Part shown: one piece after another, positions 10,511 to 52,988 of the stretch
How the letters are laid out: the number at the start of each line of letters is the position of its first letter
How positions within the stretch are numbered: the stretch's first letter is position 1
Assembly: GCA_964187785.1 (NCBI GenBank)
Contig: OZ076409.1
Coordinates: 15,378,001-15,442,000, forward strand
Direction: 5' to 3'
DNA: 64,000 nucleotides
DNA from: Amphiscolops sp. MND2022
Lineage: Eukaryota
The notes under the pieces: model-generated
The model's input: the letters and a program-made list of their open reading frames with translations, nothing else
Told to the model about the DNA's origin: nothing
Database searches by the model: none
Position numbers and translations under genes: made by a program

Positions 10511-10814
10511 TTTTCGTAACAATTGGTAATCGATTCAAAGTAACTGAGGTAAAAAGGAAAATAGGGAGGATTGAAGTAACTTTCGCTAGTTTCAAGAGCC
10601 TCAGAAGGGGAGAAAAAGTAAGACGAGTCTAGGGGGAAACGAACGTTCCAAGGCTTTCCACGGCCGAGGAAACGACGTTAAGACTGGTAGCGTTTTGAGG
10701 ACTGCTAACAGCCACCCGCCAAGGAAGCTTCAACTTGGTCCTCAGGCCTTTGGTCCCCATTTTGACCCCTTTTGCAAAACTGTCACCGAAGTTGAACCAC
10801 ATTTCTGACAAAAA

Positions 10815-31540: not shown

Positions 31541-31659
31541 AGGCTACAACACCTGGTGTTCCCAAGCGGTCTCCCATCCAAGTACTAACCAGGCCCTATG
31601 TTGTTTAACTTCGGTGATCGGACGAGAACCGGTGCATTCAACATGGTATGGTCGTAGCC
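31541..31659 (-). rRNA. 5S rRNA
   Basis: Consensus copy. Confidence 0.97.
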
Positions 31660-31751: not shown

Positions 31752-31886
31752 AAGTTAGTGCAGACTAGCTTGTTCCTTGTTCAAAAATTGGGCAGCAGAC
31801 CACTTTCGCAGTCTGCTTTCAAATAAAACTTATCAATAGGGTTGTAATACTTACCTATTTAATAAGTTTATCACAACAATTAGGCT
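31752..31886 (-). ncRNA. SL RNA coding sequence, complete but separated from its upstream region by element A1
   Basis: Exon regenerated by the TSD 31869-31886. Confidence 0.8.
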
Positions 31887-33867
31887 TTTAAAGAATTTAT
31901 TGAAAACTGAGAATTAACAAGTAAAAAGTAATGAAGTCTAAGGTATATGTATAAAATGAGTATATGAGTAACTGAAGTGTTGAAAAAGCTGAAGTATGTA
32001 GATGAAGATGCTTGGTTATGGCATTTTTGAGAAAGCGCCAAAATGGGAATGTTTTTTTTTGGTATGAAGTTAGTATAATGTAGTTTGGAGAATGTATGAA
32101 AAAAAGATGTTTGCTCCTGGAAGGAGTTTGTTCTCAAAACCCGTTTTTTGCATACAGGTTGCCAACAACTAGTGCTCGAAAAGAATTGGGAATTGGGTTG
32201 ATTGATGATGGTATTGTAGAGATTTAGAACTTTAAAATTCCAGTCAAAAAGGTCCGAAATTTTTCAGTTTAGTTTTTGTTTTCATTGTATAAGTTTTCAA
32301 CTGCAGTGAAAACTTGTACAATTTTATTCTCCAGATTAATAGTGTAAATTTGGTGGTTTGTAGCATCATAGAATGGATCAAACTTCCGGATCAATGAGTA
32401 AAATTCAAAATGAGAAGTTAAAATAGTGTTAGAGTCAGAATGTTTCCAGTTTGATTCAGATAAAAGATCTTTGAGTTTTTCTTTCTTCAGTGGTTGTACG
32501 AGTGAAAAGGTCCTTTGAATTTTCTTTTCCTTGTCTAGTGTATTGATGTAGCCAGAAGTTTGTTGGGTTTTGATCACATGTTCTTTTATAGGAGGTATTT
32601 CGTTGAAAATAGTTTCGGGTGCCAGTATTTTGTTTTGTTTCTTTTCCAAAAAGAATGGGTATTCATGATATCCATGCTTTGCCGTTGACTGTTGGTCATC
32701 TGCTTGATTTCGGGCAAGGTCTGTTGAGGATTCCCATTCAGTTGAGCGATGCATTAGTTTAGGTTTTTGCATAGGAATGGTATCTTTCTTTGAGTTGTTA
32801 ATGCATGGTTGTTCAGTTTCTGCCACGTTGTTATTGCATTCGGTTTCAGTACCATCATCGGTCTGCTTTGGCGCCTTTGAGATTGGTTCAGCATCATCTG
32901 AATCTGACAGTTCAGGTTCATTAGACATTGGCTCTGTTTCTGCAGTTTCCATAACGTAGTCAGTTGTTAACTTCTGGTTCTGAGATTCACTGTTTTTCTG
33001 TATTTGCTGTTCGTCTGATAGTTGTTTTGGGCATCTTGATTGTTGATGAGCACTGGGAAGGTTCTCATTGACGCATAAAGAGCATTCGAGGAGTGGGATA
33101 CAGCAACATTTGAAAAAAATGCCACTGGAACTAAACATTTTGTCATATGCATTATTGGCCCAGTTTTGTAGTAAACTTTCCTCATTCTCATTGTCAATTA
33201 AAACTGTAATTCTTGCCTCTCCTGTATAAAAAAGGCTGCTATCAGGAAGTCGTCGTTGTTGATGAAAAATTTTGCTACTAAATTTGAAGTTTTGAAGACC
33301 ACAGCTACTCAAAATATCCTCATCCGTCAGAAAGTGTGGTAGGTTTCGGAAAGATATTGGTAATCTTTTTGGATAGACATTGTTGTTCGGGTTGGAATAA
33401 TTGACAGAATAAGGCCGTATTTTCCGATTGCGAAGAGTAATGCCATCGTGAATAAGAGAGGAAGCTGCATTTTCAAGTTTGTAAGGAATGATCACAGTAA
33501 TACACTTCAAATTGCCTTTGTTGCGTAAAATTGTAGTTTTGAAGATGGTAATTTCATTGGAGTTAAGTCGGTTTTTGACGGCCATAACAGCTTCCACAAA
33601 CATTGAATCCAGTAATTTGCTGTTTTTGAACATTTCAGATGTCAGTGGTAAGGCAAAGTTGATAATAATTGGTAATTTGTCCATATTTGAGTTCGATTTC
33701 GACAAGGAAATAACTGCATTTTTGTAACAATTTTGCTCAACATTTTCATTATGATGTTGATCAAGCTCACTCGTGTTCAAATTAGTCATTACTTTTGCAA
33801 CTTTTGCTGCAAAATTTGCAAGATGGCGCTGTGCAAACAAAGTTTGCAGGCTGACAGAGTAACGCCG
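31887..33867 (-). mobile_element. ORF1-only non-LTR element A, copy 1
   Basis: 18-bp TSD TATCACAACAATTAGGCT at 31869-31886 and 33868-33885; 3' end AATAAATTCTTTAAA; single ORF. Confidence 0.9.
32269..33789 (-). CDS. ORF1-like protein A1 (506 aa from first ATG): RRM-like/zinc knuckle, acidic linker, unassigned C-terminal domain
   Basis: ISFRNLPHFL, FYTGEARI, IPLLECSLC..H....C align by eye with the L1/Tx1 ORF1 at 9243-10292. Confidence 0.85.
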   Translation of the reverse strand: MTNLNTSELDQHHNENVEQNCYKNAVISLSKSNSNMDKLPIIINFALPLTSEMFKNSKLLDSMFVEAVMAVKNRLNSNEITIFKTTILRNKGNLKCITVIIPYKLENAASSLIHDGITLRNRKIRPYSVNYSNPNNNVYPKRLPISFRNLPHFLTDEDILSSCGLQNFKFSSKIFHQQRRLPDSSLFYTGEARITVLIDNENEESLLQNWANNAYDKMFSSSGIFFKCCCIPLLECSLCVNENLPSAHQQSRCPKQLSDEQQIQKNSESQNQKLTTDYVMETAETEPMSNEPELSDSDDAEPISKAPKQTDDGTETECNNNVAETEQPCINNSKKDTIPMQKPKLMHRSTEWESSTDLARNQADDQQSTAKHGYHEYPFFLEKKQNKILAPETIFNEIPPIKEHVIKTQQTSGYINTLDKEKKIQRTFSLVQPLKKEKLKDLLSESNWKHSDSNTILTSHFEFYSLIRKFDPFYDATNHQIYTINLENKIVQVFTAVENLYNENKN

Positions 33868-34442
33868 TATCACAACAATTAGGCTAAAAGCAAAGAGTCA
33901 ATTTTTGGAGCGCGAGACTCCTATCTGCGGTACGGACTTGCCATTACCAGCCAACAACTTGTTTTGAGGAGAAATTCTCTTGAAAAGACGACGTTTCAAG
34001 TTATTGACATCTGATGAAACAAAAATATTCCAGAAAAATTGTGAGAAAGCAAAATTTTGACTCTATTACGAAAATGTCTGCTGAAAAGCATAAATTAGTA
34101 AGCTTAAAAATGAAATTCCATGTATTATCAAAAGTCGACTCAGGAGTGTGAAAACACGTTTTAGGGGTAAGTTTGGGCCCTCTTTCCAATGCCGTTGTCC
34201 GTTTTTTGCTATCTGTTCATTTTGACCCCTTTTGCAAAACTGTCACCGAAGTTAAACCACATTTTGTGAAAATAGTAAAAATGACATAACTCAATGAAAA
34301 TTCAAGTGATGGCGGCGAAAATTTCAGCATGGGGGTTTTTTTGGACGCTCTTTCCAATGCCGTTGTCCGTTTTTTGCTATCTGTTCATTTTGACCCCTTT
34401 TGCGAAACTGTCACCGAAGTTAAACCACATTTCTGACAAAAA

Positions 34443-34788: not shown

Positions 34789-36769
34789 TTTAAAGAATTT
34801 ATTGAAAACTGAGAATTTACAAGTAAAAAGTAATGAAGTCTAAGGTATAGGTATAAAAAGAGTATATGAGTAACTGAAGTGTTGAAAAAGCTGAAGTATG
34901 TAGATGAAGATGCTTGGTTATGGCATTTTTGAGAAAGCGCCAAAATGGGAATGTTTTTTTTAGGTATGAAGTTAGTATAATGTAGTTTGGAGAATGTATG
35001 AAAAAAAGATGTTTGCTCCTGGAAGGAGTTTGTTTTCAAAACCCGTTTTTTGCATACAGGTTGCGAACAACTAGTGCTCGAAAAGAATTGGGAATTGGGT
35101 TGATTGATGATGGTATTGTACAGATTTAGAACTTTAAAGTTCCAGTCAAAAAGGTCCGAAATTTTTCAGTTTAGTTTTTGTTTTCATTGTATAAGTTTTC
35201 AACTGCAGTGGAAACTTGTACAATTTTATTCTCCAGATTAATAGTGTAAATTTGGTGGTTTGTAGCATCATAGAATGGATCAAACTTCCGGATCAATGAG
35301 TAAAATTCAAAATGAGAAGTTAAAATAGTGTTAGAGTCAGAATGATTCCAGTTTGATTCAGATAAAAGATCTTCGAGTTTTTCTTTCTTCAGTGGTTGTA
35401 CGAGTGAAAAGGTCCTTTGAATTTTCTTTTCCTTGTCTAGTGTATTGATGTAGCCAGAAGTTTGTTGGGTTTTGATCACATGTTCTTTTATAGGAGGTAT
35501 TTCGTTGAAAATAGTTTCGGGTGCCAGTATTTTGTTTTGTTTCTTTTCCAAAAAGAATGGGTATTCATGATATCCATGCTTTGCCGTTGACTGTTGGTCA
35601 TCTGCTTGATTTCGGGCAAGGTCTGTTGAGGATTTCCATTCAGTTGAGCGATGCATTATATTAGGTTTTTGCATAGGAATGGTATCTTTCTTTGAGTTGT
35701 TAATGCATGGTTGTTCAGTTTCTGCCACGTTGTTATTGCATTCGGTTTCAGTACCATCATCGGTCTGCTTTGGCGCCTTTGAGATTGGTTCAGCATCATC
35801 TGAATCTGACAGTTCAGGTTCATTAGACATTGGCTCTGTTTCTGCAGTTTCCATAACGTAGTCAGTTGTTAACTTCTGGTTCTGAGATTCACTGTTTTTC
35901 TGTATTTGCTGTTCGTCTGATAGTTGTTTTGGGCATCTTGATTGTTGATGAGCACTGGGAAGGTTCTCAATGACGCATAAAGAGCATTCGAGGAGTGGGA
36001 TACAGCAACATTTGAAAAAAATGCCACTGGAACTAAACATTTTGTCATATGCATTATTGGCCCAGTTTTGTAGTAAACTTTCCTCATTCTCATTGTCAAT
36101 TAAAACTGTAATTCTTGCCTCTCCTGTATAAAAAAGGCTGCTATCAGGAAGTCGTCGTTGTTGATGAAAAATTTTGCTACTAAATTTGAAGTTTTGAAGA
36201 CCACAGCTACTCAAAATATCCTCATCCGTCAGAAAGTGTGGTAGGTTTCGGAAAGATATTGGTAATCTTTTTGGATAGACATTGTTGTTCGGGTTGGAAT
36301 AATTGACAGAATAAGGCCGTATTTTCCGATTGCGAAGAGTAATGCCCTCGTGAATAAGAGAGGAAGCTGCATTTTCAAGTTTGTAAGGAATGATCACAGT
36401 AATACACTTCAAATTGCCTTTGTTGCGTAAAATTGTAGTTTTGAAGATGGTAATTTCATTGGAGTTAAGTCGGTTTTTGACGGCCATAACAGCTTCCACA
36501 AACATTGAATCCAGTAATTTGCTGTTGTTGAACATTTCAGATGTCAGTGGTAAGGCAAAGTTGATAATAATTGGTAATTTGTCCATATTTGAGTTCGATT
36601 TCGACAAGGAAATAACTGCATTTTTGTAACAATTTTGCTCAACATTTTCATTATGATGTTGATCAAGCTCACTCGTGTTCAAATTAGTCATTACTTTTGC
36701 AACTTTTGCTGCAAAATTTGCAAGATGGCGCTGTGCAAACAAAGTTTGCAGGCTGACAGAGTAACGCCG
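34789..36769 (-). mobile_element. Element A, copy 2
   Basis: Same termini and TSD. Confidence 0.9.
35171..36691 (-). CDS. ORF1-like protein A2
   Basis: Intact; few aa differences from A1. Confidence 0.85.
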   Translation of the reverse strand: MTNLNTSELDQHHNENVEQNCYKNAVISLSKSNSNMDKLPIIINFALPLTSEMFNNSKLLDSMFVEAVMAVKNRLNSNEITIFKTTILRNKGNLKCITVIIPYKLENAASSLIHEGITLRNRKIRPYSVNYSNPNNNVYPKRLPISFRNLPHFLTDEDILSSCGLQNFKFSSKIFHQQRRLPDSSLFYTGEARITVLIDNENEESLLQNWANNAYDKMFSSSGIFFKCCCIPLLECSLCVIENLPSAHQQSRCPKQLSDEQQIQKNSESQNQKLTTDYVMETAETEPMSNEPELSDSDDAEPISKAPKQTDDGTETECNNNVAETEQPCINNSKKDTIPMQKPNIMHRSTEWKSSTDLARNQADDQQSTAKHGYHEYPFFLEKKQNKILAPETIFNEIPPIKEHVIKTQQTSGYINTLDKEKKIQRTFSLVQPLKKEKLEDLLSESNWNHSDSNTILTSHFEFYSLIRKFDPFYDATNHQIYTINLENKIVQVSTAVENLYNENKN

Positions 36770-37345
36770 TATCACAACAATTAGGCTAAAAGCAAAGAGT
36801 CAATTTTTGGAGCGCGAGACTCCTATCTGCGGTACGGACTTACCATTACCAGCCAACAACTTGTTTTGAGGAGAAATTCTCATGAAAAGACGACGTGTCA
36901 AGTTATTGACATCTGATGAAACAAAAATATTCCAGAAAAATTGTGAGAAAGCAAAATTTTGACTCTATTACGAAAATGTATGCTGAAAAGCATAAATTAG
37001 TAAGCTTAAAAATGAAATTCCATGTATTATCAAAAGTCGACTCAGGAGTGTGAAAAACACGTTTTAGGGGTAATTTTGGGCCCTCTTTCCAATGCCGTTG
37101 TCCGTTTTTTGCTATCTGTTCATTTTGACCTCTTTTGCAAAACTGTCACCGAAGTTAAACCACTTTTTGTGAAAATAGTAAAAATGACATAACTCAATGA
37201 AAATTCAAGTGATGGCGGCGAAAATTTCAGCATGGGGGTTTTTTTGGACGCTCTTTCCAATGCCGTTGTCCGTTTTTTGCTATCTGTTCATTTTGACCCC
37301 TTTTGCGAAACTGTCACCGAAGTTAAACCACATTTCTGACAAAAA

Positions 37346-37464
37346 AGGCTACAACACCTGGTGTTCCCAAGCGGTCTCCCATCCAAGTACTAACCAGGCC
37401 CTATGTTGTTTAACTTCGGTGATCGGACGAGAACCGGTGCATTCAACATGGTATGGTCGTAGCC
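37346..37464 (-). rRNA. 5S rRNA
   Basis: Consensus copy. Confidence 0.97.
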
Positions 37465-37556
37465 GATCATTGTAAAATCAATAGCTTTATATGCTTAACA
37501 ACAAAATTACGTACAATGATACGAAAATTTTCTCGGTCAAAATACGCGTAACTTTT

Positions 37557-37691
37557 AAGTTAGTGCAGACTAGCTTGTTCCTTGTTCAAAAATTGGGCAG
37601 CAGACCACTTTCGCAGTCTGCTTTCAAATAAAACTTATCAATAGGGTTGGAATACTTACCTATTTAATAAGTTTATCACAACAATTAGGCT
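37557..37691 (-). ncRNA. SL RNA coding sequence downstream of A3
   Basis: Same architecture. Confidence 0.8.
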
Positions 37692-39672
37692 TTTAAAGAA
37701 TTTATTGAAAACTGAGAATTTACAAGTAAAAAGTAATGAAGTCTAAGGTATATGTATAAAATGAGTATATGAGTAACTGAAGTGTTGAAAAAGCTGAAGT
37801 ATGTAGATGAAGATGCTTGGTTATGGCATTTTTGAGAAAGCGCCAAAATGGGAATGTTTTTTTTTGGTATGAAGTTAGTATAATGAAGTTTGGAGAATGT
37901 ATGAAAAAAAGAAGTTTGCTCCTGGAAGGAGTTTGTTCTCAAAACCCGTTTTTTGCATACCGGTTACGAACAACTAGTGCTCGAAAAGAATTGGGAATTG
38001 GGTTGATTGATGATGGTATTGTAGAGATTTAGAACTTTAAAGTTCCAGTCAAAAAGGTCCGAAATTTTTCAGTTTAGTTTTTGTTTTCATTGTATAGGTT
38101 TTCAACTGCAGTGAAAACTTGTACAATTTTATTCTCCAGATTAATAGTGTAAATTTGGTGGTTTGTAGCATCATAGAATGGATCAAACTTCCGGATCAAT
38201 GAGTAAAATTCAAAATGAGAAGTTAAAATAGTGTTAGAGTCAGAATGTTTCCAGTTTGATTCAGATAAAAGATCTTCGAGTTTTTCTTTCTTCAGTGGTT
38301 GTACGAGTGAAAAGGTCCTTTCAATTTTCTTTTCCTTGTCTAGTGTATTGATGTAGCCAGAAGTTTGTTGGGTTTTGATCACATGTTCTTTTATAGGAGG
38401 TATTTCGTTGAAAATAGTTTCGGGTGCCAGTATTTTGTTTTGTTTCTTTTCCAAAAAGAATGGGTATTCATGATATCCATGCTTTGCCGTTGACTGTTGG
38501 TCATCTGCTTGATTTCGGGCAAGGTCTGTTGAGGATTTCCATTCAGTTGAGCGATGCATTATATTAGGTTTTTGCATAGGAATGGTATCTTTCTTTGAGT
38601 TGTTAATGCATGGTTGTTCAGTTTCTGCCACGTTGTTATTGCATTCGGTTTCAGTACCATCATCGGTCTGCTTTGGCGCCTTTGAGATTGGTTCAGCATC
38701 ATCTGAATCTGACAGTTCAGGTTCATTAGACATTGGCTCTGTTTCTGCAGTTTCCATAACGTAGTCAGTTGTTAACTTCTGGTTCTGAGATTCACTGTTT
38801 TTCTGTATTTGCTGTTCGTCTGATAGTTGTTTTGGGCATCTTGATTGTTGATGAGCACTGGGAAGGTTCTCAATGACGCATAAAGAGCATTCGAGGAGTG
38901 GGATACAGCAACATTTGAAAAAAATGCCACTGGAACTAAACATTTTGTCATATGCATTATTGGCCCAGTTTTGTAGTAAACTTTCCTCATTCTCATTGTC
39001 AATTAAAACTGTAATTCTTGCCTCTCCTGTATAAAAAAGGCTGCTATCAGGAAGTCGTCGTTGTTGATGAAAAATTTTGCTACTAAATTTGAAGTTTTGA
39101 AGACCACAGCTACTCAAAATATCCTCATCCGTCAGAAAGTGTGGTAGGTTTCGGAAAGATATTGGTAATCTTTTTGGATAGACATTGTTGTTCGGGTTGG
39201 AATAATTGACAGAATAAGGCCGTATTTTCCGATTGCGAAGAGTAATGCCCTCGTGAATAAGAGAGGAAGCTGCATTTTCAAGTTTGTAAGGAATGATCAC
39301 AGTAATACACTTCAAATTGCCTTTGTTGCGTAAAATTGTAGTTTTGAAGATGGTAATTTCATTGGAGTTAAGTCGGTTTTTGACGGCCATAACAGCTTCC
39401 ACAAACAATGAATCCAGTAATTTGCTGTTGTTGAACATTTCAGATGTCAGTGGTAAGGCAAAGTTGATAATAATTGGTAATTTGTCCATATTTGAGTTCG
39501 ATTTCGACAAGGAAATAACTGCATTTTTGTAACAATTTTGCTCAACATTTTCATTATGATGTTGATCAAGCTCACTCGTGTTCAAATTAGTCATTACTTT
39601 TGCAACTTTTGCTGCAAAATTTGCAAGATGGCGCTGTGCAAACAAAGTTTGCAGGCTGACAGAGTAACGCCG
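37692..39672 (-). mobile_element. Element A, copy 3
   Basis: Same termini and TSD. Confidence 0.9.
38074..39594 (-). CDS. ORF1-like protein A3
   Basis: Intact ORF. Confidence 0.85.
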   Translation of the reverse strand: MTNLNTSELDQHHNENVEQNCYKNAVISLSKSNSNMDKLPIIINFALPLTSEMFNNSKLLDSLFVEAVMAVKNRLNSNEITIFKTTILRNKGNLKCITVIIPYKLENAASSLIHEGITLRNRKIRPYSVNYSNPNNNVYPKRLPISFRNLPHFLTDEDILSSCGLQNFKFSSKIFHQQRRLPDSSLFYTGEARITVLIDNENEESLLQNWANNAYDKMFSSSGIFFKCCCIPLLECSLCVIENLPSAHQQSRCPKQLSDEQQIQKNSESQNQKLTTDYVMETAETEPMSNEPELSDSDDAEPISKAPKQTDDGTETECNNNVAETEQPCINNSKKDTIPMQKPNIMHRSTEWKSSTDLARNQADDQQSTAKHGYHEYPFFLEKKQNKILAPETIFNEIPPIKEHVIKTQQTSGYINTLDKEKKIERTFSLVQPLKKEKLEDLLSESNWKHSDSNTILTSHFEFYSLIRKFDPFYDATNHQIYTINLENKIVQVFTAVENLYNENKN

Positions 39673-40248
39673 TATCACAACAATTAGGCTAAAAGCAAAG
39701 AGTCAATTTTTGGAGCGCGAGACTCCTATCTGCGGTACGGACTTACCATTACCAGCCAACAACTTGTTTTGAGGAGAAATTCTCATGAAAAGACGACGTG
39801 TCAAGTTATTGACATCTGATGAAACAAAAATATTCCAGAAAAATTGTGAGAAAGCAAAATTTTGACTCTATTACGAAAATGTATGCTGAAAAGCATAAAT
39901 TAGTAAGCTTAAAAATGAAATTCCATGTATTATCAAAAGTCGACTCAGGAGTGTGAAAAACACGTTTTAGGGGTAATTTTGGGCCCTCTTTCCAATGCCG
40001 TTGTCCGTTTTTTGCTATCTGTTCATTTTGACCTCTTTTGCAAAACTGTCACCGAAGTTAAACCACTTTTTGAGAAAATAGTAAAAATGACATAACTCAA
40101 TGAAAATTCAAGTGATGGCGGCGAAAATTTCAGCATGGGGGTTTTTTTGGACGCTCTTTCCAATGCCGTTGTCCGTTTTTTGCTATCTGTTCATTTTGAC
40201 CCCTTTTGCGAAACTGTCACCGAAGTTAAACCACATTTCTGACAAAAA

Positions 40249-40367
40249 AGGCTACAACACCTGGTGTTCCCAAGCGGTCTCCCATCCAAGTACTAACCAG
40301 GCCCTATGTTGTTTAACTTCGGTGATCGGACGAGAACCGGTGCATTCAACATGGTATGGTCGTAGCC
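40249..40367 (-). rRNA. 5S rRNA
   Basis: Consensus copy. Confidence 0.97.
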
Positions 40368-40459
40368 GATCATTGTAAAATCAATAGCTTTATATGCTTA
40401 ACAACAAAATTACGTACAATGATACGAAAATTTTCTCGGTCAAAATACGCGTAACTTTT

Positions 40460-40594
40460 AAGTTAGTGCAGACTAGCTTGTTCCTTGTTCAAAAATTGGG
40501 CAGCAGACCACTTTCGCAGTCTGCTTTCAAATAAAACTTATCAATAGGGTTGGAATACTTACCTATTTAATAAGTTTATCACAACAATTAGGCT
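40460..40594 (-). ncRNA. SL RNA coding sequence downstream of A4
   Basis: Same architecture. Confidence 0.8.
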
Positions 40595-42575
40595 TTTAAA
40601 GAATTTATTGAAAACTGAGAATTTACAAGTAAAAAGTAATGAAGTCTAAGGTATATGTATAAAATGAGTATATGAGTAACTGAAGTGTTGAAAAAGCTGA
40701 AGTATGTAGATGAAGATGCTTGGTTATGGCATTTTTGAGAAAGCGCCAAAATGGGAATGTTTTTTTTTGGTATGAAGTTAGTATAATGAAGTTTGGAGAA
40801 TGTATGAAAAAAAGAAGTTTGCTCCTGGAAGGAGTTTGTTCTCAAAACCCGTTTTTTGCATACCGGTTACGAACAACTAGTGCTCGAAAAGAATTGGGAA
40901 TTGGGTTGATTGATGATGGTATTGTAGAGATTTAGAACTTTAAAGTTCCAGTCAAAAAGGTCCGAAATTTTTCAGTTTAGTTTTTGTTTTCATTGTATAG
41001 GTTTTCAACTGCAGTGAAAACTTGTACAATTTTATTCTCCAGATTAATAGTGTAAATTTGGTGGTTTGTAGCATCATAGAATGGATCAAACTTCCGGATC
41101 AATGAGTAAAATTCAAAATGAGAAGTTAAAATAGTGTTAGAGTCAGAATGTTTCCAGTTTGATTCAGATAAAAGATCTTCGAGTTTTTCTTTCTTCAGTG
41201 GTTGTACGAGTGAAAAGGTCCTTTCAATTTTCTTTTCCTTGTCTAGTGTATTGATGTAGCCAGAAGTTTGTTGGGTTTTGATCACATGTTCTTTTATAGG
41301 AGGTATTTCGTTGAAAATAGTTTCGGGTGCCAGTATTTTGTTTTGTTTCTTTTCCAAAAAGAATGGGTATTCATGATATCCATGCTTTGCCGTTGACTGT
41401 TGGTCATCTGCTTGATTTCGGGCAAGGTCTGTTGAGGATTCCCATTCAGTTGAGCGATGTATTAGTTTAGGTTTTTGCATAGGAATGGTATCTTTCTTTG
41501 AGTTGTTAATGCATGGTTGTTCAGTTTCTGCCACGTTGTTATTGCATTCGGTTTCAGTACCATCATCGGTCTGCTTTGGCGCCTTTGAGATTGGTTCAGC
41601 ATCATCTGAATCTGACAGTTCAGGTTCATTAGACATTGGCTCTGTTTCTGCAGTTTCCATAACGTAGTCAGTTGTTAACTTCTGGTTCTGAGATTCACTG
41701 TTTTTCTGTATTTGCTGTTCGTCTGATAGTTGTTTTGGGCATCTTGATTGTTGATAAGCACTGGGAAGGTTCTCATTGACGCATAAAGAGCATTCGAGAA
41801 GTGGGATACAGCAACATTTGAAAAAAATGCCACTGGAACTAAACATTTTGTCATATGCATTATTGGCCCAGTTTTGTAGTAAGCTTTTCTCATTCTCATT
41901 GTCAATTAAAACTATAATTTTTGCCTCTCCTGTATAAAAAAGGCTGCTATCAGGAAGTCGTCGTTGTTGATGAAAAATTTTGCTACTAAATTTGAAGTTT
42001 TGAAGACCACAGCTACTCAAAATATCCTCATCCGTCAGAAAGTGTGGTAGGTTTCGGAAAGATATTGGTAATCTTTTTGGATAGACATTGTTGTTCGGGT
42101 TGGAATAATTGACAGAATAAGGCCGTATTTTCCGATTGCGAAGAGTAATGCCCTCGTGAATAAGAGAGGAAGCTGCATTTTCAAGTTTGTAAGGAATGAT
42201 CACAGTAATACACTTCAAATTGCCTTTGTTGCGTAAAATTGTAGTTTTGAAGATGGTAATTTCATTGGAGATAAGTCGGTTTTTGACGGCCATAACAGCT
42301 TCCACAAACATTGAATCCAGTAATTTGCTGTTTTTGAACATTTCAGATGTCAGTGGTAAGGCAAAGTTGATAATAATTGGTAATTTGTCCATATTTGAGT
42401 TCGATTTCGACAAGGAAATAACTGCATTTTTGTAACAATTTTGCTCAACATTTTCATTATGATGTTGATCAAGCTCACTCGTGTTCAAATTAGTCATTAC
42501 TTTTGCAACTTTTGCTGCAAAATTTGCAAGATGGCGCTGTGCAAACAAAGTTTGCAGGCTGACAGAGTAACGCCG
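40595..42575 (-). mobile_element. Element A, copy 4
   Basis: Same termini and TSD. Confidence 0.9.
40977..42497 (-). CDS. ORF1-like protein A4 (zinc-knuckle His changed to Tyr)
   Basis: Intact ORF; PSAYQQSRC. Confidence 0.85.
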   Translation of the reverse strand: MTNLNTSELDQHHNENVEQNCYKNAVISLSKSNSNMDKLPIIINFALPLTSEMFKNSKLLDSMFVEAVMAVKNRLISNEITIFKTTILRNKGNLKCITVIIPYKLENAASSLIHEGITLRNRKIRPYSVNYSNPNNNVYPKRLPISFRNLPHFLTDEDILSSCGLQNFKFSSKIFHQQRRLPDSSLFYTGEAKIIVLIDNENEKSLLQNWANNAYDKMFSSSGIFFKCCCIPLLECSLCVNENLPSAYQQSRCPKQLSDEQQIQKNSESQNQKLTTDYVMETAETEPMSNEPELSDSDDAEPISKAPKQTDDGTETECNNNVAETEQPCINNSKKDTIPMQKPKLIHRSTEWESSTDLARNQADDQQSTAKHGYHEYPFFLEKKQNKILAPETIFNEIPPIKEHVIKTQQTSGYINTLDKEKKIERTFSLVQPLKKEKLEDLLSESNWKHSDSNTILTSHFEFYSLIRKFDPFYDATNHQIYTINLENKIVQVFTAVENLYNENKN

Positions 42576-43151
42576 TATCACAACAATTAGGCTAAAAGCA
42601 AAGAGTCAATTTTTGGAGCGCGAGACTCCTATCTGCGGTACGGACTTACCATTACCAGCCAACAACTTGTTTTGAGGAGAAATTCTCATGAAAAGACGAC
42701 GTGTCAAGTTATTGACATCTGATGAAACAAAAATATTCCAGAAAAATTGTGAGAAAGCAAAATTTTGACTCTATTACGAAAATGTATGCTGAAAAGCATA
42801 AATTAGTAAGCTTAAAAATGAAATTCCATGTATTATCAAAAGTCGACTCAGGAGTGTGAAAAACACGTTTTAGGGGTAATTTTGGGCCCTCTTTCCAATG
42901 CCGTTGTCCGTTTTTTGCTATCTGTTCATTTTGACCTCTTTTGCAAAACTGTCACCAAAGTTAAACCACATTTTGTGAAAATAGTAAAAATGACATAACT
43001 CAATGAAAATTCAAGTGATGGCGGCGAAAATTTCAGCATGGGGGTTTTTTTGGACGCTCTTTCCAATGCCGTTGTCCGTTTTTTGCTATCTGTTGCTTTT
43101 GACCCCTTTTGCGAAACTGTCACCGAAGTTAAACCACATTTCTGACAAAAA

Positions 43152-43270
43152 AGGCTACAACACCTGGTGTTCCCAAGCGGTCTCCCATCCAAGTACTAAC
43201 CAGGCCCTATGTTGTTTAACTTCGGTGATCGGACGAGAACCGGTGCATTCAACATGGTATGGTCGTAGCC
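43152..43270 (-). rRNA. 5S rRNA
   Basis: Consensus copy. Confidence 0.97.
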
Positions 43271-43362
43271 GATCATTGTAAAATCAATAGCTTTATATGC
43301 TTAACAACAAAATTACGTACAATGATACGAAAATTTTCTCGGTCAAAATACGCGTAACTTTT

Positions 43363-43497
43363 AAGTTAGTGCAGACTAGCTTGTTCCTTGTTCAAAAATT
43401 GGGCAGCAGACCACTTTCGCAGTCTGCTTTCAAATAAAACTTATCAATTGGGTTGGAATACTTACCTATTTATTAAGTTTATCACAACAATTAGGCT
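43363..43497 (-). ncRNA. SL RNA coding sequence downstream of A5
   Basis: Same architecture, 2 substitutions. Confidence 0.8.
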
Positions 43498-45479
43498 TTT
43501 AAAGAATTTATTGAAAACTGAGAATTTACAAGTAAAAAGTAATGAAGTCTAAGGTATATGTATAAAATGAGTATATGAGTAACTGAAGTGTTGAAAGAGC
43601 TGAAGTATGTAGATGAAGATGCTTGGTTATGGCATTTTTGAGAAAGCGCCAAAATGGGAATTGTTTTTTTTTGGTATGAAGTTAGTATAATGTAGTTTGG
43701 AGAATGTATGAAAAAAAGATGTTTGCTCCTGGAAGGAGTTTGTTCTCAAAACCCGTTTTTTGCATACAGGTTGCGAACAACTAGTGCTCGAAAAGAATTG
43801 GGAATTGGGTTGATTGATGGTGGTATTGTAGAGATTTAGAACTTTAAAGTTCCAGTCAAAAAGGTCCGAAGTTTTTCAGTTTAGTTTTTGTTTTCATTGT
43901 ATAAGTTTTCAACTGCAGTGAAAACTTGTACAATTTTATTCTCCAGATTAATAGTGTAAATTTGGTGGTTTGTAGCATCATAGAATGGATCAAACTTCCG
44001 GATCAATGAGTAAAATTCAAAATGAGAAGTTAAAATAGTGTTAGAGTCAGAATGTTTCCAGTTTGATTCAGATAAAAGATCTTCGAGTTTTTCTTTCTTC
44101 AGTGGTTGTACGAGTGAAAAGGTTCTTTGAATTCTCTTTTCCTTGTCTAGTGTATTGATGTAGCCAGAAGTTTGTTGGGTTTTGATCACATGTTCTTTTA
44201 TAGGAGGTATTTCGTTGAAAATAGTTTCGGGTGCCAGTATTTTGTTTTGTTTCTTTTCCAAAAAGAATGGGTATTCATGATATCCATGCTTTGCCGTTGA
44301 CTGTTGGTCATCTGCTTGGTTTCGGGCAAGGTCTGTTGAGGATTCCCATTCAGTTGAGCGATGCATTAGTTTAGGTTTTTGCATAGGAATGGTATCTTTC
44401 TTTGAGTTGTTAATGCATGGTTGTTCAGTTTCTGCCACGTTGTTATTGCATTCGGTTTCAGTACCATCATCGGTCTGCTTTGGCGCCTTTGAGATTGGTT
44501 CAGCATCATCTGAATCTGACAGTTCAGGTTCATTAGACATTGGCTCTGTTTCTGCAGTTTCCATAACGTAGTCAGTTGTTAACTTCTGGTTCTGAGATTC
44601 ACTGTTTTTCTGTATTTGCTGTTCGTCTGATAGTTGTTTTGGGCATCTTGATTGTTGATGAGCACTGGGAAGGTTCTCATTGACGCATAAAGAGCATTCG
44701 AGGAGTGGGATACAGCAACATTTGAAAAAAATGCCACTGGAACTAAACATTTTGTCATATGCATTATTGGCCCAGTTTTGTAGTAAACTTTCCTCATTCT
44801 CATTGTCAATTAAAACTGTAATTCTTGCCTCTCCTGTATAAAAAAGGCTGCTATCAGGAAGTCGTCGTTGTTGATGAAAAATTTTGCTACTAAATTTGAA
44901 GTTTTGAAGACCACAGCTACTCAAAATATCCTCATCCGTCAGAATGTGTGGTAGGTTTCGGAAAGATATTGGTAATCTTTTTGGATAGACATTGTTGTTC
45001 GGGTTGGAATAATTGACAGAATAAGGCCGTATTTTCCGATTGCGAAGAGTAATGCCCTCGTGAATAAGAGAGGAAGCTGCATTTTCAAGTTTGTAAGGAA
45101 TGATCACAGTAATACACTTCAAATTGCCTTTGTTGCGTAAAATTGTAGTTTTGAAGATGGTAATTTCATTGGAGTTAAGTCGGTTTTTGACGGCCATAAC
45201 AGCTTCCACAAACATTGAATCCAGTAATTTGCTGTTGTTGAACATTTCAGATGTCAGTGGTAAGGCAAAGTTGATAATAATTGGTAATTTGTCCATATTT
45301 GAGTTCGATTTCGACAAGGAAATAACTGCATTTTTGTAACAATTTTGCTCAACATTTTCATTATGATGTTGATCAAGCTCACTCGTGTTCAAATTAGTCA
45401 TTACTTTTGCAACTTTTGCTGCAAATTTTGCAAGATGGCGCTGTGCAAACAAAGTTTGCAGGCTGACAGAGTAACGCCG
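43498..45479 (-). mobile_element. Element A, copy 5 (tandem trimer)
   Basis: Separated from A6 only by the 18-bp TSD 45480-45497. Confidence 0.9.
43881..45401 (-). CDS. ORF1-like protein A5
   Basis: Intact ORF. Confidence 0.85.
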   Translation of the reverse strand: MTNLNTSELDQHHNENVEQNCYKNAVISLSKSNSNMDKLPIIINFALPLTSEMFNNSKLLDSMFVEAVMAVKNRLNSNEITIFKTTILRNKGNLKCITVIIPYKLENAASSLIHEGITLRNRKIRPYSVNYSNPNNNVYPKRLPISFRNLPHILTDEDILSSCGLQNFKFSSKIFHQQRRLPDSSLFYTGEARITVLIDNENEESLLQNWANNAYDKMFSSSGIFFKCCCIPLLECSLCVNENLPSAHQQSRCPKQLSDEQQIQKNSESQNQKLTTDYVMETAETEPMSNEPELSDSDDAEPISKAPKQTDDGTETECNNNVAETEQPCINNSKKDTIPMQKPKLMHRSTEWESSTDLARNQADDQQSTAKHGYHEYPFFLEKKQNKILAPETIFNEIPPIKEHVIKTQQTSGYINTLDKEKRIQRTFSLVQPLKKEKLEDLLSESNWKHSDSNTILTSHFEFYSLIRKFDPFYDATNHQIYTINLENKIVQVFTAVENLYNENKN

Positions 45480-45497
45480 TATCACAACAATTAGGCT

Positions 45498-47477
45498 TTT
45501 AAAGAATTTATTGAAAACTGAGAATTTACAAGTAAAAAGTAATGAAGTCTAAGGTATATGTATAAAATGAGTATATGAGTAACTGAAGTGTTGAAAAAGC
45601 TGAAGTATGTAGATGAAGATGCTTGGTTATGGCATTTTTGAGAAAGCGCCAAAATGGGAATGTTTTTTTTGGTATGAAGTTAGTATAATGTAGTTTGGAG
45701 AATGTATGAAAAAAAGAAGTTTGCTCCTGGAAGGAGTTTGTTCTCAAAACCCGTTTTTTGCATACCGGTTACGAACAACTAGTGCTCGAAAAGAATTGGG
45801 AATTGGGTTGATTGATGATGGTATTGTAGAGATTTAGAACTTTAAAGTTCCAGTCAAAAAGGTCCGAAATTTTTCAGTTTAGTTTTTGTTTTCATTGTAT
45901 AAGTTTTCAACTGCAGTGAAAACTTGTACAATTTTATTCTCCAGATTAATAGTGTAAATTTGGTGGTTTGTAGCATCATAGAATGGATCAAACTTCCGGA
46001 TCAATGAGTAAAATTCAAAATGAGAAGTTAAAATAGTGTTAGAGTCAGAATGTTTCCAGTTTGATTCAGATAAAAGATCTTCGAGTTTTTCTTTCTTCAG
46101 TGGTTGTACGAGTGAAAAGGTCCTTTGAATTTTCTTTTCCTTGTCTAGTGTATTGATGTAGCCAGAAGTTTGTTGGGTTTTGATCACATGTTCTTTTATA
46201 GGAGGTATTTCGTTGAAAATAGTTTCGGGTGCCAGTATTTTGTTTTGTTTCTTTTCCAAAAAGAATGGGTATTCATGATATCCATGCTTTGCCGTTGACT
46301 GTTGGTCATCTGCTTGATTTCGGGCAAGGTCTGTTGAGGATTTCCATTCAGTTGAGCGATGCATTAGTTTAGGTTTTTGCATAGGAATGGTATCTTTCTT
46401 TGAGTTGTTAATGCATGGTTGTTCAGTTTCTGCCACGTTGTTATTGCATTCGGTTTCAGTACCATCATCGGTCTGCTTTGGCGCCTTTGAGATTGGTTCA
46501 GCATCATCTGAATCTGACAGTTCAGGTTCATTAGACATTGGCTCTGTTTCTGCAGTTTCCATAACGTAGTCAGTTGTTAACTTCTGGTTCTGAGATTCAC
46601 TGTTTTTCTGTATTTGCTGTTCGTCTGATAGTTGTTTTGGGCATCTTGATTGTTGATGAGCACTGGGAAGGTTCTCATTGACGCATAAAGAGCATTCGAG
46701 GAGTGGGATACAGCAACATTTGAAAAAAATGCCACTGGAACTAAACATTTTGTCATATGCATTATTGGCCCAGTTTTGTAGTAAACTTTCCTCATTCTCA
46801 TTGTCAATTAAAACTGTAATTCTTGCCTCTCCTGTATGAAAAAGGCTGCTATCAGGAAGTCGTCGTTGTTGATGAAAAATTTTGCTACTAAATTTGAAGT
46901 TTTGAAGACCACAGCTACTCAAAATATCCTCATCCGTCAGAAAGTGTGGTAGGTTTCGGAAAGATATTGGTAATCTTTTTGGATAGACATTGTTGTTCGG
47001 GTTGGAATAATTGACAGAATAAGGCCGTATTTTCCGATTGCGAAGAGTAATGCCCTCGTGAATAAGAGAGGAAGCTGCATTTTCAAGTTTGTAAGGAATG
47101 ATCACAGTAATACACTTCAAATTGCCTTTGTTGCGTAAAATTGTAGTTTTGAAGATGGTAATTTCATTGGAGTTAAGTCGGTTTTTGACGGCCATAACAG
47201 CTTCCACAAACATTGAATCCAGTAATTTGCTGTTGTTGAACATTTCAGATGTCAGTGGTAAGGCAAAGTTGATAATAATTGGTAATTTGTCCATATTTGA
47301 GTTCGATTTCGACAAGGAAATAACTGCATTTTTGTAACAATTTTGCTCAACATTTTCATTATGATGTTGATCAAGCTCACTCGTGTTCAAATTAGTCATT
47401 ACTTTTGCAACTTTTGCTGCAAATTTTGCAAGATGGCGCTGTGCAAACAAAGTTTGCAGGCTGACAGAGTAACGCCG
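45498..47477 (-). mobile_element. Element A, copy 6 (tandem trimer)
   Basis: TSDs 45480-45497 and 47478-47495. Confidence 0.9.
45879..47399 (-). CDS. ORF1-like protein A6
   Basis: Intact ORF. Confidence 0.85.
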   Translation of the reverse strand: MTNLNTSELDQHHNENVEQNCYKNAVISLSKSNSNMDKLPIIINFALPLTSEMFNNSKLLDSMFVEAVMAVKNRLNSNEITIFKTTILRNKGNLKCITVIIPYKLENAASSLIHEGITLRNRKIRPYSVNYSNPNNNVYPKRLPISFRNLPHFLTDEDILSSCGLQNFKFSSKIFHQQRRLPDSSLFHTGEARITVLIDNENEESLLQNWANNAYDKMFSSSGIFFKCCCIPLLECSLCVNENLPSAHQQSRCPKQLSDEQQIQKNSESQNQKLTTDYVMETAETEPMSNEPELSDSDDAEPISKAPKQTDDGTETECNNNVAETEQPCINNSKKDTIPMQKPKLMHRSTEWKSSTDLARNQADDQQSTAKHGYHEYPFFLEKKQNKILAPETIFNEIPPIKEHVIKTQQTSGYINTLDKEKKIQRTFSLVQPLKKEKLEDLLSESNWKHSDSNTILTSHFEFYSLIRKFDPFYDATNHQIYTINLENKIVQVFTAVENLYNENKN

Positions 47478-47495
47478 TATCACAACAATTAGGCT

Positions 47496-49475
47496 TTTAA
47501 AGAATTTATTGAAAACTGAGAATTTACAAGTAAAAAGTAATGAAGTCTAAGGTATATGTATAAAATGAGTATATGAGTAACTGAAGTGTTGAAAAAGCTG
47601 AAGTATGTAGATGAAGATGCTTGGTTATGGCATTTTTGAGAAAGCGCCAAAATGGGAATGTTTTTTTTGGTATGAAGTTAGTATAATGTAGTTTGGAGAA
47701 TGTATGAAAAAAAGAAGTTTGCTCCTGGAAGGAGTTTGTTCTCAAAACCCGTTTTTTGCATACCGGTTACGAACAACTAGTGCTCGAAAAGAATTGGGAA
47801 TTGGGTTGATTGATGATGGTATTGTAGAGATTTAGAACTTTAAAGTTCCAGTCAAAAAGGTCCGAAATTTTTCAGTTTAGTTTTTGTTTTCATTGTATAA
47901 GTTTTCAACTGCAGTGAAAACTTGTACAATTTTATTCTCCAGATTAATAGTGTAAATTTGGTGGTTTGTAGCATCATAGAATGGATCAAACTTCCGGATC
48001 AATGAGTAAAATTCAAAATGAGAAGTTAAAATAGTGTTAGAGTCAGAATGTTTCCAGTTTGATTCAGATAAAAGATCTTCGAGTTTTTCTTTCTTCAGTG
48101 GTTGTACGAGTGAAAAGGTCCTTTGAATTTTCTTTTCCTTGTCTAGTGTATTGATGTAGCCAGAAGTTTGTTGGGTTTTGATCACATGTTCTTTTATAGG
48201 AGGTATTTCGTTGAAAATAGTTTCGGGTGCCAGTATTTTGTTTTGTTTCTTTTCCAAAAAGAATGGGTATTCATGATATCCATGCTTTGCCGTTGACTGT
48301 TGGTCATCTGCTTGATTTCGGGCAAGGTCTGTTGAGGATTTCCATTCAGTTGAGCGATGCATTAGTTTAGGTTTTTGCATAGGAATGGTATCTTTCTTTG
48401 AGTTGTTAATGCATGGTTGTTCAGTTTCTGCCACGTTGTTATTGCATTCGGTTTCAGTACCATCATCGGTCTGCTTTGGCGCCTTTGAGATTGGTTCAGC
48501 ATCATCTGAATCTGACAGTTCAGGTTCATTAGACATTGGCTCTGTTTCTGCAGTTTCCATAACGTAGTCAGTTGTTAACTTCTGGTTCTGAGATTCACTG
48601 TTTTTCTGTATTTGCTGTTCGTCTGATAGTTGTTTTGGGCATCTTGATTGTTGATGAGCACTGGGAAGGTTCTCATTGACGCATAAAGAGCATTCGAGGA
48701 GTGGGATACAGCAACATTTGAAAAAAATGCCACTGGAACTAAACATTTTGTCATATGCATTATTGGCCCAGTTTTGTAGTAAACTTTCCTCATTCTCATT
48801 GTCAATTAAAACTGTAATTCTTGCCTCTCCTGTATGAAAAAGGCTGCTATCAGGAAGTCGTCGTTGTTGATGAAAAATTTTGCTACTAAATTTGAAGTTT
48901 TGAAGACCACAGCTACTCAAAATATCCTCATCCGTCAGAAAGTGTGGTAGGTTTCGGAAAGATATTGGTAATCTTTTTGGATAGACATTGTTGTTCGGGT
49001 TGGAATAATTGACAGAATAAGGCCGTATTTTCCGATTGCGAAGAGTAATGCCCTCGTGAATAAGAGAGGAAGCTGCATTTTCAAGTTTGTAAGGAATGAT
49101 CACAGTAATACACTTCAAATTGCCTTTGTTGCGTAAAATTGTAGTTTTGAAGATGGTAATTTCATTGGAGTTAAGTCGGTTTTTGACGGCCATAACAGCT
49201 TCCACAAACATTGAATCCAGTAATTTGCTGTTTTTGAACATTTCAGATGTCAGTGGTAAGGCAAAGTTGATAATAATTGGTAATTTGTCCATATTTGAGT
49301 TCGATTTCGACAAGGAAATAACTGCATTTTTGTAACAATTTTGCTCAACATTTTCATTATGATGTTGATCAAGCTCACTCGTGTTCAAATTAGTCATTAC
49401 TTTTGCAACTTTTGCTGCAAAATTTGCAAGATGGAGCTGTGCAAACAAAGTTTGCAGGCTGACAGAGTAACGCCG
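47496..49475 (-). mobile_element. Element A, copy 7 (tandem trimer)
   Basis: TSDs 47478-47495 and 49476-49493. Confidence 0.9.
47877..49397 (-). CDS. ORF1-like protein A7
   Basis: Intact ORF. Confidence 0.85.
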   Translation of the reverse strand: MTNLNTSELDQHHNENVEQNCYKNAVISLSKSNSNMDKLPIIINFALPLTSEMFKNSKLLDSMFVEAVMAVKNRLNSNEITIFKTTILRNKGNLKCITVIIPYKLENAASSLIHEGITLRNRKIRPYSVNYSNPNNNVYPKRLPISFRNLPHFLTDEDILSSCGLQNFKFSSKIFHQQRRLPDSSLFHTGEARITVLIDNENEESLLQNWANNAYDKMFSSSGIFFKCCCIPLLECSLCVNENLPSAHQQSRCPKQLSDEQQIQKNSESQNQKLTTDYVMETAETEPMSNEPELSDSDDAEPISKAPKQTDDGTETECNNNVAETEQPCINNSKKDTIPMQKPKLMHRSTEWKSSTDLARNQADDQQSTAKHGYHEYPFFLEKKQNKILAPETIFNEIPPIKEHVIKTQQTSGYINTLDKEKKIQRTFSLVQPLKKEKLEDLLSESNWKHSDSNTILTSHFEFYSLIRKFDPFYDATNHQIYTINLENKIVQVFTAVENLYNENKN

Positions 49476-50398: not shown

Positions 50399-51351
50399 TT
50401 TAAAGATTGTATTGGACCTTTTAATGTATAAATCAAATAGTCTTTATAGTAAGTCTAAGTATAAATTGTATAAAAGATATAAACGGTATAAAAGGTGTAC
50501 AGAGTACTGTATAAGAGTATGAAAAAGTACTGAGTGAAAAATGGAAGCTTGTTTGAAAGTTCAGGCAAAAAAGAACGTTGTTTTTTTGAAGAAATTAGTA
50601 TAATGTAGTCTTGAGTATGTGGGGTAAAAGTGATGTTTGCTCCTGGATGGAGTTATTGGATCAAACTGTTTTTTGGCTTTTTTAATAGCATGGTATTGAA
50701 CTTTACAAGACTTGGGATTTGAGGGTGTAGCATATCAAGGAGTGGGTTTTGAGTTATTTGTGTTGTTACAAAAAATAGCATCAATCTTGTTTTTCAAATG
50801 GGATAAAGTCATATCTAACTTTTCCTTGGAGATTTACTAAATAAATGATGTTCTCGGGTTTGTAAAAGAAGGCATCCAGTCTTCCTTTGATGTATTTGAA
50901 GGCATCGTAGTTGGCGATCTTTGAAGAGGAGGTTCGGCTTCTCCACTCTTTGTCTTCAAACATCTCTTGTTGTGCTGATTCCGATAGTTTTTGGACATAT
51001 CTTAGTTGGTTAACAACAACTTTTTTATCGTTAATGATGTTGATATCACCTCCTTTGTGATCACATTCTGCTAGTTTAGGATATTTTGATTCCATTCTGT
51101 TGACAGTTTGAATAATTTCGTTGTCCACATCGAGGTAAAACGGTAAAAAAGCAAAATCGGGATCCACTTTCGTGGCTTTGTTTTCAGGTTCATCAGCTGA
51201 CTCCTCCTCCTCCTCAGAAGGTATTGGCTCAGTATCTTCATTGCTAAGATTGTTTTTTTGTGTAGAGTGATGTTTGCATTGCTTCTTATGATGGCCCATA
51301 AATTGGCGTTTTCCTTCGTTACAATTCTCACATTTTACAATGTGTTATTGT
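50399..51351 (-). mobile_element. ORF1-only element B, 5'-truncated copy
   Basis: TSD 50381-50398 and 51352-51369; matches the 3' ~935 bp of B2; ORF remnant 50781-51334. Confidence 0.9.
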
Positions 51352-51369: not shown

Positions 51370-52988
51370 TTTAAAGATTGTATTGGACCTTTTATTGTAT
51401 AAATCAAATAGTCTTTATAGTAAGTCTAAGTATAAATTGTATAAAAGATATAAACGGTATAAAAGGTGTACAGAGTACTGTATAAGAGTATGAAAAAGTA
51501 CTGAGTGAAAAATGGAAGCTTGTTTGAAAGTTCAAGCAAAAAAGAACGTTGTTTTTTTTGAAGAAATTAGTATAATGTAGTCTTGAGTATGTGGGGTAAA
51601 AATGATGTTTGCTCCTGGATGGAGTTATTGGATCAAACTGTTTTTTGGCTATTTTAATAGCATGGTATTGAACTTTAAAAGACTTGGGATTTGAGGGTGT
51701 AGCATATCAAGGAGTGGGTTTTGAGTTATTTGTGTTTGTTACAAAAAATAGCATCAATCTTGTTTTTCAAATGGGATAAAGTCATATCTAACTTTTCCTT
51801 GGAGATTTACTAAATAAATGATGTTCTCGGGTTTGTAAAAGAAGGCATCCAGTCTTCCTTTGATGTATTTGAAGGCATCGTAGTTGGCGATCTTTGAAGA
51901 GGAGGTTCGGCTTCTCCACTCTTTGTCTTCAAACATCTCTTGTTGTGCTGATTCCGATAGTTTTTGGACATATCTTAGTTGGTTAACAACAACTTTTTTT
52001 ATCGTTAATGATGTTGATATCACCTCCTTTGTGATCACATTCTGCTAGTTTAGGATATTTTGATTCCATTCTGTTGACAGTGTGAATAATCTCGTTGTCC
52101 ACATCGAGGTAAAACGGTAAAAAAGCAAAATCGGGATCCACTTTCGTGGCTTTGTTTTCAGGTTCATCAGCTGACTCCTCCTCCTCAGAAGGTATTGGCT
52201 CAGCATCTTCATTGCTAAGATTGTTTTTTTGTGTAGAGTGATGTTTGCATTGCTTCTTATGATGGCCCATAAATTGGCGTTTTCCTTCGTTACAATTCTC
52301 ACATTGTAACAAGGTTTGAATGTAACATTTGAAGGGAATTTCATTAGTAACAAACTGGTTCAAAAAGGCTTGTTGGTTCCATGATTTGATGTTTTCTAAT
52401 TGGCATTGATTGGCAATCTCTATTTCAGCATAACAGATTCCAGTAAAGGCTTCGATGTCGTCAGAAATTCTTACTCTTTGGTGGCGTAATTTGGAAATTT
52501 TGTACTCTTGCAGATTACAAGCCTCCACAATCTCTCCATCTTCTAAAAAGTGTGGTAAATTGCGGAATTTCAAAGTGAATTGCTTTGGGTAGGAGTTAGA
52601 ACAAACATCACTGTTTTGGAATGCATAAATTATCCGGTTTTTGTAAGGAATTCCTTTAAGAAGTAGGTTTTTGAAGTCGTTTTCTATCGAGTTTGGAGCA
52701 ATAATTTTGATGCATTCAAGCTTCTTTTCATGCTCATGCGCTGGCGCATGTTTGGACACGTACGATTTAATGCATGTCACGCTGTCAATATGAGTAGGCG
52801 ATAAAGCATGTAAAAGCTTGCAAAGGAATTCTTTGTAAACAGCTTGCTTTATGTTTGGGCTGGTAATTTCTTCTTTTGTGTAAGGAATGATGAATTCTGC
52901 TGTCAATAAAGGCATTGTTCAGGTAATTTTCGTCTTCTCTGCCGCAGCAGTGAGAGTAGAGTTAGCAAATAATCGCTGACACACGCAG
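51370..52988 (-). mobile_element. ORF1-only element B, full-length copy (~1.6 kb)
   Basis: Left TSD complete; right TSD (52989-52999) cut by the Helitron-type 5' end. Confidence 0.88.
51754..52915 (-). pseudogene. ORF1-like protein B (~386 aa), one +1 frameshift in a T-run near 51995
   Basis: LKFRNLPHFL, FTG, LLQCENC..GHHKKQC. The truncated copy B1 has 6 T and reads through where B2 has 7 T. Confidence 0.82.

Follow-up and report, generated by a model that had tools for sequence, protein, structure and literature searches.

An Uncatalogued C-Terminal Domain in the ORF1 Proteins of ORF1-Only L1/Tx1-Type Elements in a 5S/Spliced-Leader Gene Array

The only protein of two elements, A and B, ends in a domain of about 120 residues. 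The domain is real and uncatalogued, and the elements that carry it are of a known kind (HAL1-, HeT-A- or TRE5-A.2-like). In A it comprises residues 376-506 of the ORF1 protein and is encoded at 32272..32664 on the minus strand of the window, i.e., of the whole 64-kb stretch of DNA that was analyzed. It was characterized by BLASTP and shuffles, and its fold was predicted on the B homologue. The domain extends the small set of known ORF1p modules by one that is uncatalogued; if it turned up in autonomous ORF1s, it would be just a new lineage-specific module.

Elements A and B in the Spliced-Leader Genes

On its minus strand, the window contains an array of 5S rRNA genes (12 Rfam matches) and spliced-leader (SL) genes. 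Rfam placed the 5S gene of the host repeat unit at 31541..31659 (minus strand). The 31-nt SL exon matches the leader of the acoel Symsagittifera roscoffensis published in PMC9911081, and the host is thus probably this acoel or a close relative of it. The first copy of element A (1981 bp, 31887..33867, minus strand), delimited by its junctions, is flanked by an 18-bp target duplication, which consists of one base plus nucleotides 1-17 of the leader. The 5' copy of the duplication is located at 33868..33885, and the 3' copy at 31869..31886 (both minus strand) runs into a complete SL exon, a donor site and an Sm-like site. The same duplication flanks each A copy, in one case with a mismatch, and, given its composition, the whole SL exon is rebuilt downstream. 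Similar short 5' motifs open A (33850-33867) and B (52975-52988, both minus strand), right behind the target duplication.

Element A is present in the window in seven copies of 1980-1982 bp each, which are about 99% identical and all have an intact ORF of 506 codons. The six further full-length copies (35171, 38074, 40977, 43881, 45879 and 47877) lie within 34789..49475 (minus strand), and the last three are arranged head to tail, with one target duplication between neighbours. The variable codons among the seven copies (20 nonsynonymous, 5 synonymous) are uninformative on selection. Seven copies of 99% identity with precise junctions suggest that A is mobilized in trans, although array homogenization could also have produced the copies.

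Element B has a longer copy at 51370..52988 (minus strand), with an ORF at 52915-51754 that is frameshifted inside the domain near position 51995, and a 5'-truncated copy at 50399..51351 (minus strand), with the domain at 50784-51146. The initial annotation had cited the latter (50781-51150) for the domain of B; the domain is indeed there, but the copy is truncated and is not an intact B. The intact B ORF1 has 387 residues (P0020) and is represented by 11 of the 15 listed members of a 36-member cluster. The 3' junction is identical in both B copies, and A and B are inserted at one common site in the SL exon.

ORF calling revealed a single ORF in A, which encodes a protein of 506 residues (32269..33789, minus strand). 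Tandem RRMs (about residues 40-128 and 140-230; 33100..33672, minus strand), whose limits were taken from the alignment to B and which correspond to a Foldseek match of the B model, are followed by one CCHC zinc knuckle that is evident in the sequence (C-x2-C-x8-H-x4-C; 33031..33084, minus strand). An acidic linker, recognized from the charge profile (32665..33030, minus strand), connects the knuckle to the C-terminal domain, and its counterpart in B (residues 228-265, pLDDT <50) is predicted to be disordered.

The A 3' UTR (382 nt, 31887..32268, minus strand) ends in CTTTAAA and was found by UTR comparison to be collinear with that of B. It contains a core of 77 nt (A 32053..32128, B 51552-51626, minus strand) that is 83% identical in A and B, compared with about 29% overall identity of the two proteins, and that is not found in T, the autonomous-type element described below. 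The score of the A/B 3' UTR alignment was 239 versus a maximum of 174 in 200 shuffles, and that of the domain DNA was 143 versus a maximum of 150. The fold of the core RNA was not notable (z -1.8 and -1.1). The core is a candidate signal for the ORF2p of a partner element.

A and B are ORF1-only elements of the L1/Tx1 type, because seven ORF2 queries matched the 64-kb window only inside T. DNA context was seen for A and B only, and the absence of ORF2 therefore applies to these two alone.

Homology, Predicted Fold and Family Searches of the Domain

In the BLASTP alignment, residues 378-498 of A matched the B piece at 50781-51299 with 25 identities in 121 positions (21%), one gap of four residues and an E value of 9e-8. 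The local score of the two domains was 98, the mean of the shuffles was 29 +/- 5, and none of 2000 shuffles reached 98. In contrast, the 130-residue tail that follows the knuckle of T matched the domains of A, B and two further proteins, C and D, only at chance level (z -0.8 to 1.2), and none of 15 T ORF1 proteins scored above 3.9 bits with a 14-row domain profile. Thus, the initial proposal of a C-terminal domain of about 120 residues that is common to A and B, and absent from T, was confirmed, including the significance of the A/B alignment. The acidic linker that had been noted ahead of the domain is also present, but it is not peculiar to A and B, since the T ORF1 protein likewise has an acidic linker, in its case followed by a basic tail.

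The B domain is predicted to fold independently. Prediction with a 4-row alignment resulted in a pLDDT of 87.8 and a pTM of 0.82, and the five models ranged from 86.8 to 87.8. In the full-length B model (overall pTM 0.50) the domain stands behind the linker of low pLDDT, and the N-terminus matches tandem RRMs (Foldseek, E 1.1e-4).

The initial view that the domain cannot be assigned to a family also held, as searches of Pfam, PHROGs, and PDB sequences and folds gave no family. With 14 domain members, ten Pfam families were each matched by a single member (best E 0.016), and PHROGs yielded matches of single members only (best E 0.0055), none of them useful. Among PDB sequences there was one partial match (E 0.011); further matches, to designed beta-propellers, were sums over repeats in which each blade contributed 2.6-4 bits. 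The ESM Atlas gave no usable match, a result that bears on neither absence nor novelty. The CTD of the L1 transposase_22 family was matched by none of the 14 members in Pfam and is not among the fold matches listed, which leaves room for a relation to it. In the titles and abstract openings that were covered, neither the domain nor such elements in acoels were described.

Several specific candidates were rejected or found no support. The type II ORF1p organization (coiled coil, single RRM, CTD) does not apply, because the B model has two RRMs, plus a knuckle. A PHD or esterase module, which would have conserved Cys/His ligands or a Ser-Asp-His catalytic set, was rejected, as conservation stays below 60% in every Cys, His and Ser column and Pfam gave no match. 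For the RNase H1 hybrid-binding domain (Cauli_VI, PF01693), the hhalign probability was 0.1% and the score 8.0 versus a shuffled mean of 8.6, with a template of 17 rows, one of them in the wrong frame. The NUMOD1 or I-TevI-type HTH module, a DNA-binding module with a beta-beta-alpha-alpha-beta fold, was at shuffle level in the domain profile test, and an internal two-fold repeat was unsupported (hhalign probability 2%). PD-(D/E)XK nucleases have an invariant Asp and a (D/E)xK motif; in the domain, D94 is present in only 8 of 13 members, and the second motif position reads N-L-x, without Lys.

Distribution and Divergence of the Domain

The domain is not confined to A and B, and profile searches revealed it in C, D and further proteins. 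C (P0048) and D (P0049), with seven members each (five and six of them full-length, respectively), both end in the domain and both lack the CCHC knuckle. For five of the six pairs among the four domains, at most one of 2000 shuffles reached the observed score; the pair A-D was weak (60/2000). A search of 1.84 billion representatives with the 4-row profile yielded 12 matches, i.e., two pieces of B and C, three new full-length ORF1s (B2, E and F) and seven fragments, three of which have an acidic linker upstream of the domain. In one fragment, P0300, the domain is found behind an unrelated N-terminus, which we take to recall a bacterial FG-GAP repeat, and the gene call is possibly chimeric. In all seven full-length proteins that have the domain, including the knuckle-less C and D, it is C-terminal.

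The domain diverges faster than the N-terminus across the family pairs. The identities of N-terminus and domain were 88% and 75% for B-B2, 53% and 31% for B-E, 67% and 24-26% for B-F, 67% and 30% for C-D, 46% and 22% for A-C, 49% and 18% for A-D, and 31% and 20% for A-B. In the N-terminal tree, which has a midpoint root only, A, A2, C and D form one group and B, B2, E and F another, and the branch of T is long. The domain tree was poorly resolved and rejected neither the N-terminal topology nor vertical descent (p-AU 0.63 and 0.28; seven full-length families), and the AU tests thus gave no support for domain shuffling between families.

At least 60% conservation was seen in 22 columns of the domain, which are mostly hydrophobic, and the sole invariant residue is N108 (13/13). 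The net charge varies from -8 to +9 across the members, with values of 0 or +1 for A, B and C. The mostly hydrophobic nature of the conserved columns, together with the variable charge, speaks against a catalytic role and against a nucleic-acid ligand that is fixed. None of the basic residues is invariant, the best being K45 (7/11) and K100 (8/13), and each domain has 14-18 aromatic residues.

Element T and Further ORF2 Families

APE-type elements and ORF1-only dependants crowd this one SL/5S array, the host of which is probably an acoel. T (5868..10760, minus strand) has an ORF1 and an APE-RT ORF2, both frameshifted here, and served as a comparator only. The intact T ORF1 has 424 residues (P0033), and the copy in the window is frameshifted upstream of 10283. 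The N-terminal 200 residues are shared by T as well (22-27% identity). In the one, degraded T copy, the 3' junction lies deeper in the SL exon than that of A and B, by about 11 nt, the 5' junction is in the spacer, and the 160-nt 3' UTR matches that of A and B at chance level only. Because of the differing 3' junction and 3' UTR, T is probably not the partner of A and B.

An RT search revealed many related ORF2 clusters. Seven of the nine clusters examined besides that of T appear to share contigs with A and B among the listed members (at most 15 per cluster), with contigs equated by their lengths only. The seven ORF2 families that were compared are 31-66% identical to one another. At least eight L1/Tx1-type ORF2 families (P0062-P0088) appear to share the same contigs, and a guild of APE elements that target the 5S/SL array is possible. 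An origin of the domain as an ORF2p remnant was ruled out, since none of 227 ORF2-type proteins carries it (best score 4.8 bits). A metagenome motif search for the 3' end of a partner gave no related sequence among 20 matches, and scans of viral and metagenome sequences revealed no relatives.

The initial annotation had also proposed that the domain is specific to the non-autonomous lifestyle. Both A and B indeed lack an ORF2, but specificity is not established, as T is a poor comparator and other ORF2 families are apparently on the same contigs.

Possible Origin and Function of the Domain

The domain could be a protein-binding adaptor that docks the RNA particle of the element onto the ORF2 machinery of a partner element, a role that we propose tentatively and regard as possible, if on balance doubtful. 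In such a mechanism, the element would be transcribed from the SL gene interrupted by the insertion, ORF1p would package its own RNA via the RRMs, and the conserved 3' UTR core would be read by the ORF2p of an unseen partner. The tethered domain would bind the ORF2p or ORF1p of the partner, and target-primed reverse transcription would rebuild the whole SL exon downstream, allowing repeated insertion. A folded unit behind a disordered linker, which is kept at the C-terminus in all seven full-length proteins and diverges faster than the N-terminus, is consistent with an adaptor, as is the diversity of the candidate partners. A precedent is HeT-A Gag, which cooperates with TAHRE, i.e., an ORF1p-ORF1p interaction between an ORF1-only element and its partner (PMC6719617). 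An adaptor is favoured over RNA binding, a host tether or decoy, and self-oligomerization because the domain is tethered, neutral and non-catalytic, and varies whereas the RNA and DNA ligands do not. Among the functions proposed initially, partner capture is the candidate role that fits best, and binding of the SL target or of Sm proteins seems to fit least, since the insertion site of A and B is identical, yet their domains are about 20% identical and share no basic patch. There are also points against an adaptor. Relaxed constraint or an escape from host defence would explain the fast divergence just as well. The common target site and the 3' UTR core of A and B suggest one partner, and domains of such low identity would go awkwardly with a single shared partner surface. 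By analogy with the C-module of TRE5-A.2, the 3' UTR alone could recruit ORF2p (PMC3159450).

Concerning its origin, the domain may be an ordinary lineage-specific ORF1 module that came from an unseen autonomous family with the 3' UTR and nick site of A and B and has the same job there, an explanation to which we give not quite an even chance. The differences between T and A/B and the further ORF2 clusters that appear to be on the A/B contigs leave room for such a family, DNA context is visible for A and B and not for C, D and ten further proteins, and recently derived ORF1-only telomeric elements have the UTRs of their progenitors (PMC13534243). The same source, however, reports that new ORF1-only lineages can also arise from ORF1-only lineages, and six of the seven C contigs are without a listed member of ten ORF2 clusters, compared with one of nine T ORF1 contigs (eight have one). 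In addition, the reading frame of a stop-loss variant of C continues into four residues that match the start of the A 3' UTR (chance 53/5000), as would be seen with an A-like UTR rather than an ORF2. The contig pattern and the read-through are hints that C is also ORF1-only. C is mainly on contigs other than those of A and B, and it may have another target site.

An accessory RNA-binding domain, which would support the RRMs in binding the RNA of the element itself (perhaps at the 77-nt core) and make the knuckle dispensable, is unlikely. The CTD of L1 ORF1p has a similar role and assists the RRM (PMC4120745), domain and core are both present in A and B and both missing from T, C and D have kept the domain despite the absence of a knuckle, and the aromatic residues would suit RNA contacts. 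However, the RNA core is much better conserved between A and B than the domain, the net charge of A, B and C is near zero with no invariant basic residue, and the RNase H1 hybrid-binding and NUMOD1 profiles were at shuffle level. Even less probable is that the domain tethers the element to a host component of the 5S/SL locus (Sm core, snRNA promoter factors or TFIIIB/C) or acts as a decoy that counters host silencing; the rapid change would be compatible with an arms race. In TRE5-A, protein contacts of ORF1p aim integration; it binds TFIIIB subunits, and TRE5-B ORF1p does so as well with only 25% identity (PMC3159450), so that a conserved host ligand is compatible with low identity. A read-through transcript would, moreover, include the Sm-like site. 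Yet the base-precise site is more simply set by the APE endonuclease of the partner, as in the Tx1-type specificity described in PMC4640811, a conserved surface motif was not found in the domain, and C is mostly on other contigs. A self-oligomerization module in place of the short, basic, heptad-like tail of T ORF1p is improbable. It would occupy the same position as that tail, whose last 35 or so residues have L/I/V at a spacing of 3-4 (judged by eye), and the B model is devoid of a long N-terminal coiled coil, but the domain is confidently predicted to fold as a monomer, and self-association needs no fast divergence.

For non-autonomous elements, mostly RNA features have been invoked to explain how they overcome the preference of ORF2p for its own RNA. 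With a small, separable domain that is predicted to fold well and is found in many families of ORF1, a route based on protein can be tested directly. The adaptor reading has a bolder form, which we consider quite improbable, namely a long-lived guild of ORF1-only elements with a dedicated hijacking domain of new fold that occurs in no autonomous element, the surface of which would be in a race to fit the ORF2p particles of rival partners that target SL genes, as a protein-level counterpart of the ribosome trick of Alu.

Comparison with Known Systems

HAL1 is likewise a non-autonomous derivative of the L1 group with ORF1p only (PMC5753468). Its ORF1p has a coiled coil-RRM-CTD organization, in contrast to the tandem RRMs and CCHC knuckle of A and B, which in addition are site-specific in SL exons and have an extra domain that is missing from the sole autonomous ORF1 seen. 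HeT-A and the ORF1-only telomeric elements of Drosophila, which account for about 40% of 396 telomeric families, are target-restricted, form head-to-tail arrays and need a partner ORF2 (PMC13534243), and HeT-A Gag associates with partner particles (PMC6719617). Unlike A and B, which belong to the L1/Tx1 group and reside in a 5S/SL array, they are of the Jockey clade and reside at chromosome ends, and an added globular domain is not described for them in the available parts of these two sources. TRE5-A.2 of Dictyostelium has kept ORF1 together with the 3' module but not ORF2 and is mobilized in trans; however, it arose by deletion from a known parent whose ORF1 is the same (PMC3159450), whereas the N-terminus of A and B is 26% identical to that of T, and elements of the A/B kind have diversified into many families.

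With two RRMs directly ahead of a CCHC knuckle, A, B, B2, E and F resemble type I ORF1p as defined in PMC4120745. The differences are that there is only a single knuckle, which C and D lack, and that the domain appears, judging by the Pfam and fold searches, to be none of the modules CTD, PHD, esterase and coiled coil. CRE, SLACS and CZAR are SL-targeting non-LTR elements. Insertion into SL exons is also known for NeSL (PMC4640811). All of these elements have a restriction-like endonuclease, in contrast to the APE of the autonomous elements here and to A and B, which encode no enzyme.

Further Features of the Array

Positions 1-3606 and 53000-64000 contain a 446-bp tandem repeat as well as a degenerate satellite that includes tRNA-like segments, for which neither ARAGORN nor Rfam gave a match. 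A conserved stretch (30985-31045) directly precedes each SL exon; its minus strand has a donor-like sequence and its plus strand an Sm-like site. It had no notable fold on either strand and is possibly the promoter. The 5S/SL array is interrupted by a 17-kb insertion (13275-30317), which is a nearly full palindrome with a short self-complementary terminus and with arms (about 13275-20671 and 22201-30317) that are 96-99% identical. The Pfam matches of its mirrored small ORFs were unconvincing; the ORF at 24460-25038 presumably contains an HUH-like motif. At the palindrome centre there is an ORF (21397-21915, minus strand) with only weak Pfam matches, the end of which we take to resemble a TRAF coiled-coil/MATH junction.
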